Assembly (NCBI GenBank): GCA_028712255.1 | Contig: JAQTQJ010000003.1 | Location: forward strand, 71,173 to 135,172 | From: Candidatus Omnitrophota bacterium | GTDB taxonomy: Bacteria > Omnitrophota > Gorgyraeia > Gygaellales > Profunditerraquicolaceae | DNA length: 64,000 nt | Direction: 5' to 3' | Shown: in pieces, positions 34,532-37,855 of the stretch | Position numbering within the stretch: the first letter of the stretch is position 1 | Layout: the number at the start of each line of letters is the position of its first letter | Notes under the pieces: model-generated | Seen by the model: only the letters and a program-made list of their open reading frames with translations | What the model was told of the DNA's origin: nothing | Databases searched by the model: none | Translations under genes and position numbers: made by a program

Positions 34532-34560
34532 TTGACAACACCGAAATATTGTGGTAAAAA
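34532..34560 (+). promoter_or_regulatory. putative promoter TTGACA-17-(TGg)TAAAAA of the ATP-grasp/KamA operon
   Basis: cTTGACAacaccgaaatattgtggTAAAAA. Confidence 0.4.
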
Positions 34561-34626
34561 AATAACATAGATACAATATTTTGCATAATTTTTCGGAGGT
34601 TTACAAACTAAGTTGGAAAAAATTGG

Positions 34627-34683
34627 ATGATTCTTAAGAGGCTCATGAAAAACGAAACCAAACATGAGCCTTTTTTATTATGA
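34627..34683 (+). CDS. candidate 18-codon leader peptide (MILKRLMKNETKHEPFLL) overlapping a terminator hairpin; stop overlaps the downstream ATG (ATGA)
   Basis: The hairpin gaggctcatg...catgagcc plus TTTTTT lies inside the small ORF. The downstream gene has no Shine-Dalgarno sequence. Confidence 0.35.
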   Translation: MILKRLMKNETKHEPFLL

Positions 34684-35669
34684 AAACCGTCGGATTAACC
34701 TACGATTTAAAAACCGATTATAAATTTAAAGAAGGTGACCCGCTTGATGCCAATGCGGAGTTTGACTCTTCTTCGACAATCAATGTCATTGCCGATGCTA
34801 TAGCCGCTAACGGTTTCAAAGTAAAAAAGATAGGCAATGCCAATAATTTATTAGAGAAGATTGATAATCTCGGAGTGGATATTGTTTTTAATATCTCCGA
34901 GGGCCTAACCGGAAGAAACCGCGAATCCCAGGTTCCTATTTTACTTGAAATGGCCGCGATCCCTTTTGTAGGGGCAGATGCTTTAACCTTAGGGCTTACT
35001 CTGGATAAGGTTATGGCCAAAAAGATTTTTATTGCGGAAAAAATACCCACCCCTAGATTCTTCGAAGTAAGTTCTGCGGATGCCTTGATTGACCAGGACC
35101 ATTGTAAATTTCCCCTGATTGTAAAACCACGCTTTGAAGGTTCTTCAAAAGGTTTAAGCGAAAGTTCTCGCGTAGAGAATACCGAAGAGCTTGAAAAACA
35201 GGTTGATTTTATTACTAAAACCTACAAGCAGCCAGCTCTTGTGGAGGAGTTTATTTCAGGGCAGGAGTTTACGGTAGCCATTGTCGGCAATAAAGAGCCT
35301 GAAGTTATGCCTGTGGTACAGATAAAGATAGACGGAAAATTAAAATTAAATGATAAATTTTATACTTTTGCGCGGATTACCTCCGATAGGTTAGAGTATA
35401 TTTGCCCGGCAAAGATTTCGGCTGAGTTAAAGAAAAAATTAAATGATTTAGCTCTCAAGGTCTATCGTTCTGTAGAGTGTAGAGATTTTGGTAGGGTGGA
35501 TTTTCGGGTGGATAATGAAGGTAATCCATATGTATTGGAGATAAATCCCCTACCGTCCTTGTCTACTGAAGATGTTTTTATGCTTATTGCTAAAGATATC
35601 GGGATTACTTATGAACAGATGATTGGTAAAATTTTAAATAGCGCTCTCATAAGAAATGGGTTAAGCTAA
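34680..35669 (+). CDS. D-Ala-D-Ala ligase-like ATP-grasp enzyme, paralog 1
   Basis: Ddl N-terminal domain plus an ATP-grasp core (FPLIVKPRFEGSSKG...LEINPLP). Confidence 0.75.
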   Translation: MKTVGLTYDLKTDYKFKEGDPLDANAEFDSSSTINVIADAIAANGFKVKKIGNANNLLEKIDNLGVDIVFNISEGLTGRNRESQVPILLEMAAIPFVGADALTLGLTLDKVMAKKIFIAEKIPTPRFFEVSSADALIDQDHCKFPLIVKPRFEGSSKGLSESSRVENTEELEKQVDFITKTYKQPALVEEFISGQEFTVAIVGNKEPEVMPVVQIKIDGKLKLNDKFYTFARITSDRLEYICPAKISAELKKKLNDLALKVYRSVECRDFGRVDFRVDNEGNPYVLEINPLPSLSTEDVFMLIAKDIGITYEQMIGKILNSALIRNGLS

Positions 35670-36671
35670 ATGAAAGTTGCCCTGACCTATAACTTAAAAA
35701 AGAAAGATCCTTTAAAGCCGGCAGACTATTTTTCTGAGTGCGATTCTGCAGAGACGATTAATTGTGTTATTTCGGCGCTCAAAACCAAAGGTCATTCTGT
35801 CGAGGCCATTGACGTAGAGTACCCGGCGCTGTTTTCATATTTTAGAAAAAATCGCGTAGATATGGTATTTAATATTGCCGAAGGAAAACATGGGCGTTTT
35901 CGTGAATCCGAAGTGCCAGCGGTGTTAGATTATTTAAACATACCTTATACTGGATCAGATACTTTTTCTTTAGCTTTGGCTTTGAATAAAACTTTGACCA
36001 AGAAAATACTTAAGGCAGAGAATATCCCCACTCCTAATTTTCAGCTTTTTATAAAGGGTGATGAATCGTTGGATGAACAGTTAAAGTTTCCATTGATTGT
36101 AAAACCTAATTGCGAAGGTTCGGCAAAAGGGATAAATAAGACTAATGTAGTTGAGAATAAAGAGGATCTTTTTAAGAAGATTAAGGAATGTATAGAGGTG
36201 TATCAACAGGAGGCTTTGGTTGAGGAATTTATCGAAGGCAAAGAGTTAACCGTCGGTATTTTGGAGAACGGTAAAACAAGAGTGCTGCCGATTCTAGAGA
36301 TCGATTTTGCTAATTGTAAAAAAAGCGGAGAGTATTTTTATTCCTGGAAAATGAAAGAATTTCAGGGAAATAGTGAATTGGGACTGGTTCCTGAATTTCA
36401 TTGCCCGGCCCGCTTGGATAAGGATATTGAAGATAAAGTAAAAGATGTGGCCTTGCGCACGCACCGTGCAGTAGGCTGCCTGGATATTTCACGCACGGAT
36501 ATTCGTTTGGATAAATTTAATGTGCCTTATGTTTTGGAGATCAATCCACTGCCGGGGCTGGATCCTAAAGAATCTAATTTTCCCATGATGGCATATGCTG
36601 CCGGGATGAAATATGAAGATCTTATTGAGGCAATACTGATGAGCGCCTCAGAAAGGAAAAGGCTCAATTGA
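35670..36671 (+). CDS. D-Ala-D-Ala ligase-like ATP-grasp enzyme, paralog 2
   Basis: FPLIVKPNCEGSAKG...LEINPLPG; a tandem paralog of the previous gene. Confidence 0.75.
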   Translation: MKVALTYNLKKKDPLKPADYFSECDSAETINCVISALKTKGHSVEAIDVEYPALFSYFRKNRVDMVFNIAEGKHGRFRESEVPAVLDYLNIPYTGSDTFSLALALNKTLTKKILKAENIPTPNFQLFIKGDESLDEQLKFPLIVKPNCEGSAKGINKTNVVENKEDLFKKIKECIEVYQQEALVEEFIEGKELTVGILENGKTRVLPILEIDFANCKKSGEYFYSWKMKEFQGNSELGLVPEFHCPARLDKDIEDKVKDVALRTHRAVGCLDISRTDIRLDKFNVPYVLEINPLPGLDPKESNFPMMAYAAGMKYEDLIEAILMSASERKRLN

Positions 36672-37855
36672 ATAATCCGTTAGGTTTAGAAAACCAAAAA
36701 GTGCAAGTAGAAACGCCAGCTATTGTGCGGCCTCCGAAGCGCTCACGTGATTATCAGCAGATTTCTCTTTTTAAAGATGTTAATCCATTAGATTGGGAGG
36801 ATTGGCATTGGCAGCTCAAACACAGGATTTGCGCCAAAGAAGAATTAAGCCAGATTATTAAGCTTACTCCCGAAGAAGAGAAGGGTCTTGATAAGGCTAA
36901 AGGTAGATTAGCCATGGCGATCACCCCCTATTGGGCAAGTTTAATTGATACTGATGATCCAAACTGCCCGATCAGAAGGCAGTCTGTTCCTGTTGGCGAT
37001 GAGTTCTCTATCTCTCCGCATGAGATGGCTGATCCGTGCGCAGAAGACAGGGATTCTCCTGCCCCACATTTAGTGCATCGGTATCCGGATAGGGTTTTGT
37101 TGTTGGCTACGGAACATTGTGCAATGTATTGCCGTCATTGCACCCGCCGCCGGCTGGTGGGGGATCATGAAGAGAAGGATTCAAATCCGGAGACTAAATT
37201 TGACACAGCTTTAGAATATATTAAATCTAACCGTAAGATAAGGGATGTATTAATTTCCGGAGGAGACCCGCTTACATTAGAAGACGCAGCATTAGAATCT
37301 TTAATTTCCAAGATTCGTGCTATATCCCATGTCGAGTTGTTAAGGATAGGCACGCGTGTGCCGGTAACTCTACCACAGCGTATTACCGAAAACCTGGTAA
37401 ATATGCTCAAAAAATATTCGCCTATTTGGATGAGTATTCATTTTAATCATCCTAAAGAAATTACCAAGCGCTGTAAGAATGCTTGTGATATGCTTGCTGA
37501 AAGCGGTATACCTTTAGGAAGCCAATCAGTGCTTCTTAAAGGTATTAATGATCGTCCGTTTATTATGAAACGGCTGGTGCATGATCTTTTGCAGATAAGG
37601 GTAAGGCCTTATTATATTTATCAGTGCGATCCGGTCAGGGGTACGCAGCATTTCCGCACTCCTGTGGCCAGCGGAATAAATATTATCGAGAAATTACGCG
37701 GACATACCTCAGGTTATGCGGTTCCGACCTATGTTATCGACGGACCGGGCGGCGGAGGGAAGATCCCTGTTGGGCCAAATTATATTCTTTCTCAGGCCAA
37801 AGGTAAATATGTACTGCGTAATTATAAGGGCAAGATTTACACCTACCTGGAATAA
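36668..37855 (+). CDS. radical-SAM lysine 2,3-aminomutase family protein (KamA/EpmB-like)
   Basis: HCAMYCRHCTRRR, the KamA-type CxxxCxxC cluster; 395 aa. Confidence 0.85.
   Translation: MNNPLGLENQKVQVETPAIVRPPKRSRDYQQISLFKDVNPLDWEDWHWQLKHRICAKEELSQIIKLTPEEEKGLDKAKGRLAMAITPYWASLIDTDDPNCPIRRQSVPVGDEFSISPHEMADPCAEDRDSPAPHLVHRYPDRVLLLATEHCAMYCRHCTRRRLVGDHEEKDSNPETKFDTALEYIKSNRKIRDVLISGGDPLTLEDAALESLISKIRAISHVELLRIGTRVPVTLPQRITENLVNMLKKYSPIWMSIHFNHPKEITKRCKNACDMLAESGIPLGSQSVLLKGINDRPFIMKRLVHDLLQIRVRPYYIYQCDPVRGTQHFRTPVASGINIIEKLRGHTSGYAVPTYVIDGPGGGGKIPVGPNYILSQAKGKYVLRNYKGKIYTYLE

Follow-up and report, generated by a model that had tools for sequence, protein, structure and literature searches.

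What becomes of β-lysine in an organism that encodes a lysine 2,3-aminomutase of the KamA family directly behind two ligases resembling D-alanine-D-alanine ligase (Ddl)? This question is raised by a three-gene operon in a 64,000-nucleotide (nt) stretch of contig JAQTQJ010000003.1 from a Candidatus Omnitrophota bacterium, which we call the window and whose own numbering we use throughout. To our knowledge, β-lysine has only a few fates, namely, acetylation to an osmolyte, modification of EF-P, fermentation, and use in antibiotic side chains. We found the aminomutase and ligase genes to be linked in many lineages, and we lean, with slightly more than even confidence, toward a reading in which the β-lysine made by the aminomutase is incorporated by the ligases into a small cytoplasmic product of a peptide-like kind. 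The three genes, which we call A1, A2, and K, are as follows.

34680-35669, forward strand: A1, 329 amino acids, a Ddl-fold ATP-grasp amide ligase of the A1-type clade
35670-36671, forward strand: A2, 333 amino acids, a second Ddl-fold ATP-grasp ligase, of an Omnitrophota-specific paralogue clade
36668-37855, forward strand: K, 395 amino acids with a TTG start, a short-form lysine 2,3-aminomutase (radical S-adenosylmethionine [SAM] and pyridoxal 5′-phosphate [PLP])

The stop codon of A1 (TAA, 35667-35669) directly abuts the ATG of A2, and the TTG start of K and the TGA stop of A2 overlap by 4 nt, as TTGA.

The aminomutase and the paired ligases

K matched the Pfam models LAM_C and Radical_SAM, contains EHCAMYCRHCTRRR, and carries the radical-SAM CxxxCxxC motif as CAMYCRHC. 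Its alignment to the lysine 2,3-aminomutase of Clostridium subterminale (2A5H; E 8e-147 over K residues 32-395) gave equivalents of C125/C129/C132, R134, D293, D330, and K337, of which Lys337 binds PLP and Arg134 the substrate carboxylate in lysine 2,3-aminomutase. D293 and D330, found in K in the contexts YQCD and VIDGPGGGGK, reportedly bind the ε-amine of lysine in 2A5H and are said to be Lys and Asn in glutamate 2,3-aminomutase. Among the cassette-linked homologues of K, D293 was present in 56/56 and D330 in 55/56, the single exception having a gap at both 330 and 337. Apart from this gap, CxxxCxxC, Arg134, and K337 were likewise retained in all 56. K narrowly cleared the NCBIfam equivalog model for AblA (TIGR03820; 530.9 versus a cut-off of 525.4), and it scored under the cut-offs of the glutamate (475 versus 650) and arginine (420 versus 600) aminomutase models and of the EpmB model (TIGR03821; 253.5 versus 369.3). 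β-Lysine production by K is well supported by these comparisons and is the best-supported step of the pathway predicted here. EpmB is said to yield the (R) isomer and the clostridial enzyme the (S) isomer. Because Cys268 is replaced with Arg in K (it was found in 0/56 homologues) and the K sequence stops at a position matching residue 367, short of the C-terminal Cys triad (Cys375/377/380), the clostridial inter-subunit zinc site is, as judged from the alignment, absent from K, as is the C-terminal domain.

Both ligases matched Pfam Dala_Dala_lig_C (PF07478; 1.4e-39 for A1 and 5.3e-38 for A2), and they are 41% identical to each other. An AlphaFold model of A1 (pLDDT 79, pTM 0.83) had Ddl as its top PDB matches in Foldseek (E 5e-25, TM 0.75-0.8, 23-27% identity), and the only close solved structures for the ligases are those of Ddl and Van ligases. 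We mapped the ligase residues onto the numbering of Escherichia coli DdlB, the sequence of which was checked against 2DLN, and found K97, K144, E148, E180, E187, R255, D257, E270, and N272 to be invariant in 107/107 ligases. By this mapping, A1 and A2 are Ddl-like three-domain ATP-grasp ligases in which all residues for ATP, Mg, and catalysis are retained, and they share with Ddl and VanA/B/C/G the fold, the residues of acyl-phosphate catalysis, and a similar length.

The residues that confer D-Ala specificity are a different matter. The identity of A1 and A2 to the Ddl and Van ligases is 23-30%, and both fell under every curated Ddl/Van cut-off (NCBIfam Ddl models NF002378/TIGR01205, 192/164 for A1 and 210/171 for A2, against cut-offs of 243/246), as did the A1-type proteins of other phyla and those of type B, the second ligase found there, for the Ddl cut-offs. 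H63 is replaced with Glu in all 107 ligases and E68 with Arg in most of them, and Y216 is lost, being Thr in A1 and Glu in A2. The S281/L282 position is Asp-Val in the A1 proteins of Omnitrophota (D298/V299 in the window), S302/N303 in A2, and Ser-Asp in the A1-type proteins of other phyla. The first 36 residues of the ligases could not be aligned to DdlB, even profile to sequence, nor could the GGxSxExEVS motif that holds E15; the N-terminus instead has a new conserved motif, D23/E27/D29. Thus, of the set with which Ddl binds D-Ala (E15, H63, the S150-Y216 triad, and S281/L282), only S150 is retained. The pockets of A1 and A2 are, on this alignment, remodeled, more highly charged, and different from each other. 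A1-type proteins have Asp at 281 or 282, the site of D-Ala2 carboxylate binding in Ddl, and this acidic residue suggests a cationic partner or substrate.

These results agree with the first-pass annotation of this DNA, which had described two paralogous Ddl-type ATP-grasp genes, abutting in tandem and overlapping a KamA gene, a description borne out by the open reading frame (ORF) coordinates, the stop and start sequences, the mutual identity, and the Pfam and structure matches. Its naming of the third gene as a radical-SAM lysine 2,3-aminomutase was upheld by the 2A5H match, the AblA model, and the lysine-specific residues. When the ligases were checked for the D-Ala-D-Ala specificity residues, neither had them, and a further Ddl homologue was detected neither in the window nor among the 160 loci described below.

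Linkage of the cassette across phyla

A genome scan with an A1-type profile gave 80 loci and a metagenome scan 80 more, in which ORFs were called and labeled by BLAST. A broad alignment of 27 sequences had no stretch conserved enough for a search profile, and a narrower alignment was used. Linkage was counted at loci having a single-domain A1-type gene and at least 2.6 kb on both sides of it. K was present in 55/57 of these loci, in five distinct gene orders (26/26 from Omnitrophota, 10/12 from other phyla, and 19/19 from metagenomes, the last set being dominated by one Dehalococcoidia-like lineage, so that the linkage counts are not independent events), and it lay less than 1.2 kb from the A1-type gene in 49 of the 55. 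This adjacency of A1 and K is far beyond chance. Co-localization with KamA, which was checked in relatives, holds in no fewer than eight lineages of phylum rank (Omnitrophota, Elusimicrobia, Deltaproteobacteria, Syntrophales, Bacillota, Dehalococcoidia, Kryptonia, and Bathyarchaeia) despite changes in gene order, which may be A1-A2-K, A1-K, K-A1-B, A1-B-GNAT-K, K-A1 plus a B gene on the other strand, or A1...K-B. Since the linkage persists through repeated rearrangement, it indicates that the co-localization of K and the ligases is under selection. A two-component system lies between A1 and K in Deltaproteobacteria. The K-A1-B cassette was found in three metagenome-assembled genomes (MAGs) of Bathyarchaeia, and their archaeal assignment is credible because the same contigs encode an archaeal-type phosphoenolpyruvate carboxylase and an archaeal MoaA.

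A neighbor-joining tree sorted the ligases into three clades, with the A1-type found in all phyla, A2 in Omnitrophota only and sister to the A1-type, and B as the second ligase outside that phylum. A2 is absent from several Omnitrophota, e.g., at L036, L038, L041, L042, and L044-L047, which carry A1 and K alone, so A1 and K are the core of the cassette. Many of the 150 cluster representatives nearest to A1 are 600- to 790-residue proteins with two ATP-grasp halves, either as an A1-B fusion that mirrors the gene order or with a divergent half ahead of an A1-type half. Because A1-B and other double ATP-grasp fusions are common, their architecture argues that the two ligases may act together as a physical unit. 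The second type of fusion occurs in Kofleriaceae, Haliangiales, Bdellovibrionales, Gemmatimonadaceae, and Acidobacteriota.

Outside Omnitrophota, the cassette has several accessory genes. A GNAT of about 160 residues follows ligase B in 25 metagenome loci; it gave a weak match to RimI and thus resembles an N-terminal acetyltransferase, and the AblB model was not among the listed NCBIfam matches of this GNAT. No GNAT was found in the Omnitrophota operon. The other accessories are a membrane protein resembling MarC, a divergent winged-helix regulator, and a GNAT-deacetylase fusion. The last is a 580-residue fusion of a GNAT domain with a domain of the histone deacetylase family, placed after the K-A1-B-GNAT cassette on Dehalococcoidia-like contigs and without a match in NCBIfam:

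L063, 4759-6501: GNAT-deacetylase fusion, also found in L084-L086, L092, L093, L095, L105, L109, and L115

Two further loci carry other neighbors. In a Bdellovibrionales MAG (L064, 6969-10168), a fused double ATP-grasp ligase of 677 residues is directly followed by an S58 peptidase, with no KamA nearby; S58 is the DmpA/BapA family, which includes β-peptide aminopeptidases. In a Bathyarchaeia locus (L060, 1010-6349), genes for an MFS transporter, methylthioribose-1-phosphate isomerase, an enolase-superfamily protein, a 198-residue ORF, and a GNAT lie 5′ of K, and the enolase-superfamily protein is most similar to L-Ala-D/L-Glu dipeptide epimerase, below the cut-off. The peptidase, and the epimerase-like gene together with the MFS transporter, are hints of peptide chemistry, each from a single locus.

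The predicted fate of β-lysine

In the pathway that we favor, K would convert L-lysine to β-lysine, and A1 and A2, as catalytically competent ATP-grasp amide ligases, would act together, probably as a Ddl-like hetero-pair. Each would activate a carboxylate as an acyl phosphate and couple it to an amine, and one or two of these ATP-dependent couplings would give a di- or tripeptide or a short β-lysine oligomer. In other phyla, the product would probably be N-acetylated too, by the small RimI-like GNAT. β-Lysine would thus be the substrate of the ligases, and the product, which we predict to be of this small size, may serve as a compatible solute, as a polycation, or in another role.

There are precedents for parts of this logic, by analogy. 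In pyrrolysine biosynthesis, the radical-SAM lysine mutase PylB reportedly makes a lysine isomer, the carboxylate of which the adjacent Ddl-like ATP-grasp enzyme PylC is said to join to the N-ε of lysine. The cassette shares this combination of a radical-SAM lysine mutase and a Ddl-like ligase, although the two systems are analogous rather than homologous; PylB does not belong to the KamA family, and the cassette has two ligases and no PylD. PylC was not among the listed PDB profile matches of the ligases (the best 60 of 82). Carnosine synthase and Ngg are likewise reported to be ATP-grasp ligases, each forming a small peptide in the cytoplasm. Carnosine is built from a β-amino acid, and Ngg combines a GNAT with an ATP-grasp domain and makes the dipeptide osmolyte NAGGN. 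Both are said to differ from A1 and A2 in their substrates and in belonging to unrelated ATP-grasp subfamilies.

Two known systems are closer with respect to K. In AblA/AblB, which makes the osmolyte N-ε-acetyl-β-lysine, a lysine 2,3-aminomutase is likewise encoded in a short dedicated operon; K narrowly passes as AblA, and some cassettes have a GNAT. However, the cassette has no AblB, its GNAT being the small RimI-like protein, and has two ATP-grasp ligases instead, and K is without the zinc-site Cys residues and the C-terminal extension. EpmB/EpmA resembles the cassette in pairing a KamA-family enzyme with an ATP-dependent partner that forms an amide with β-lysine, and K is short like EpmB. 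It differs in that K scored 253 against the EpmB cut-off of 369 and that the partner in the cassette is an ATP-grasp enzyme, not a paralogue of class II lysyl-tRNA synthetase. No EF-P homologue turned up in the window, and no search was made for EpmA.

Several points weigh against a β-lysine peptide. The support for all of its steps is computational, and the pocket argument draws on a sequence alignment to DdlB in which the register of the omega loop is uncertain by one residue. Some Omnitrophota are without A2, and hence a two-step product is not universal. K was found within 8 kb of 0/9 double ATP-grasp fusions of the second type, so the ligase family is not strictly tied to β-lysine. Finally, no exporter or clearly product-defining gene was conserved across phyla.

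Some of the same observations favor an alternative, which we regard as unlikely, in which a single pathway contains both K and the ligases but the ligase substrate is not β-lysine and may be, e.g., lysine, another diamino acid, or a downstream metabolite, or in which K and the ligases are only co-regulated. This alternative would account for the fused ligases without K nearby and for the two-component system separating A1 and K in Deltaproteobacteria, and the product of the cassette is so far a predicted one. On the other hand, the proximity of K in 49 of 55 loci, a linkage that outlasts several rearrangements, and the abutting or overlapping start and stop codons in the window speak against it.

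Attachment of β-lysine to a macromolecule, i.e., to a side chain or terminus of a protein such as a translation factor, by EpmA-independent β-lysylation or by tailing as in RimK/LysX, is in our judgment rather improbable, and the specific version, an ATP-grasp-based, EpmA-independent β-lysylation of a translation factor or other protein common to anaerobic bacteria and Bathyarchaeia, a shade more so. The precedent is clear, since the KamA-family enzyme EpmB supplies the β-lysylation of EF-P. The Omnitrophota operon is also surrounded by genes related to translation (a YchF-like gene, MnmE, and, in relatives, an EF-G paralogue immediately following K), an accessory GNAT is RimI-like and another is fused to a deacetylase in the Dehalococcoidia-type cassettes, and there was a weak Pfam match to tubulin-tyrosine ligase. 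However, K is far under the EpmB cut-off and above that of AblA, the ligases are Ddl-like rather than RimK-like (136 versus 21 bits), and the translation-gene neighbors are a phylum-specific synteny that other phyla do not keep. Moreover, there is no conserved gene for a small carrier or target within the cassette, and efp was not found in the window.

It is very improbable that the ligases add β-lysine to a peptidoglycan precursor, as the first-pass annotation had allowed, or that one of them is the D-Ala-D-Ala ligase of the organism: Ddl is their nearest family in sequence and fold, ATP-grasp enzymes such as Asl of Enterococcus faecium do add side-chain residues to murein precursors, and no other ddl lies within the 64-kb window, but the D-Ala-binding residues are lost (H63, Y216, and S281/L282 are not conserved, and the E15 motif is unalignable), all curated Ddl/Van cut-offs are missed, and the same K-A1-B cassette occurs in the three Bathyarchaeia MAGs. 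Unlike Ddl and the Van ligases, A1 and A2 come as tandem pairs or fusions, are linked to KamA and in no locus adjacent to mur/fts genes, and are present in archaea. A large clade of proteins annotated as Ddl, which this cassette defines, is almost certainly not made up of cell-wall enzymes; cluster representatives matching A1 at E ≤ 1e-30 numbered 1,116, a count in which this clade and true Ddl are taken together.

Expression signals and setting of the operon

Besides the three genes, the operon region contains the following elements.

34532-34560, forward strand: promoter-like site with -35 and -10 boxes and sequence conservation
34595-34676, forward strand: leader and attenuator candidate, with GGAGG, TTGGAAAAA, a GC hairpin, and a T-run
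37916-38002, no strand assigned: nested palindromic element 3′ of K, with 15-nt outer and 11-nt inner arms

The promoter-like site consists of TTGACA (34532-34537), at which the stretch marked in the first-pass annotation begins, a 17-nt spacer ending in TGTGG, and TAAAAA (34555-34560). Its -35 box CTTGACAA and extended -10 box TGTGATAAAA were kept in 11/12 aligned Omnitrophota loci, and it was missed by a generic promoter scan, which accepts a -10 box only if its sixth base is T. In the leader, GGAGG (34595-34599) is followed after 13 nt by TTGGAAAAA (34613-34621), a GC hairpin (34638-34672), and a T-run that stops 3 nt 5′ of the A1 ATG, and A1 lacks its own Shine-Dalgarno sequence in the window. 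The consensus of this element is 75 to 85 nt long (GGAGG, 12 to 14 nt, (A/G)TTGGAAAAA, a GGGCTC/GAGCCC hairpin, and a T-run). Each of about 20 Omnitrophota loci has a single copy of it, invariably 5′ of A1 (noted for L001-L028), with an extra 60 to 140 nt between it and A1 in some of them.

The hairpin was present in both the minimum free energy and the centroid folds, and the whole leader folded at z = -2.0. RNAalifold found no consensus structure in a 12-sequence leader alignment, in which the variable loops were misaligned, and the hairpin is supported by single-sequence folding and inspection by eye. Searches against Rfam, with the gathering cut-offs and with permissive ones, detected tRNAs alone in the window, and matches in the leader did not rise above chance. 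A conserved leader peptide was rejected, as the mini-ORF starting from the TTG after GGAGG is 1 to 27 codons long, with 12 to 14 nt between GGAGG and TTG. The leader looks like a terminator-based attenuator, although it could alternatively be a small RNA gene. Transcription would run from the operon's own promoter through this leader and, given its intrinsic terminator, would probably be controlled by attenuation. The proposal that the operon has its own promoter and leader was thus supported by the conserved boxes and by the hairpin and T-run just 5′ of A1.

The nearest homologues of A1 are from Candidatus Omnitrophota MAGs (80-94% identity). Because related MAGs keep the same three genes in the same housekeeping synteny (M20 peptidase, PAC2, HAD, the operon, YchF-like gene, PurH, FolC, and MnmE) and the GC content of the operon is the same as that of its flanks, the operon is vertically inherited within this Omnitrophota lineage and is not an island. 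The M20-family peptidase, PAC2, and HAD hydrolase genes lie 5′ of it (31488-34520), in an order that is kept in many Omnitrophota loci and absent in other phyla; M20 enzymes include dipeptidases that cleave β-alanyl dipeptides. Further upstream, a 645-residue protein (28944-30881) combines a PilZ domain at its N-terminus with a weak glycoside hydrolase 76-like region, an unusual pairing that is also kept in relatives.

Between K and the next gene, the nested palindrome spans 87 nt (outer arms AAGTGTCATTGCGAG) and is possibly the 3′ end of the operon; in relatives, its position is taken by the EF-G paralogue gene. It is single-copy in the window, and a repeat family here was rejected. The next gene (38041-38742) encodes a 233-residue protein that matched only the C-terminal 90 residues of YchF (the DUF933 domain), with no GTPase domain detected, and this short form is kept in about 24 Omnitrophota loci (median 233 residues).

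Overall, the first interpretation of this locus was supported, with a product that remains a predicted one. No NCBIfam model was passed by A1, A2, or B, no solved structure was found for their clade, and no description of KamA or β-lysine together with ATP-grasp, Ddl, or ligase was found in the part of the literature covered; on these negative searches rests the view, already taken in the first-pass annotation, that KamA with two Ddl-like ligases is not a described arrangement. Although the cassette draws on familiar enzyme families and a familiar chemical logic, it is conserved and uncharacterized and implies a new metabolite. Its carriers include many anaerobic, uncultured lineages from sediment and groundwater, bacterial as well as archaeal. 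Recurring in eight or more phyla, archaea among them, the pairing of K with the ligases implies a further, unrecognized fate of β-lysine, which would be a β-lysine-containing peptide or oligomer.

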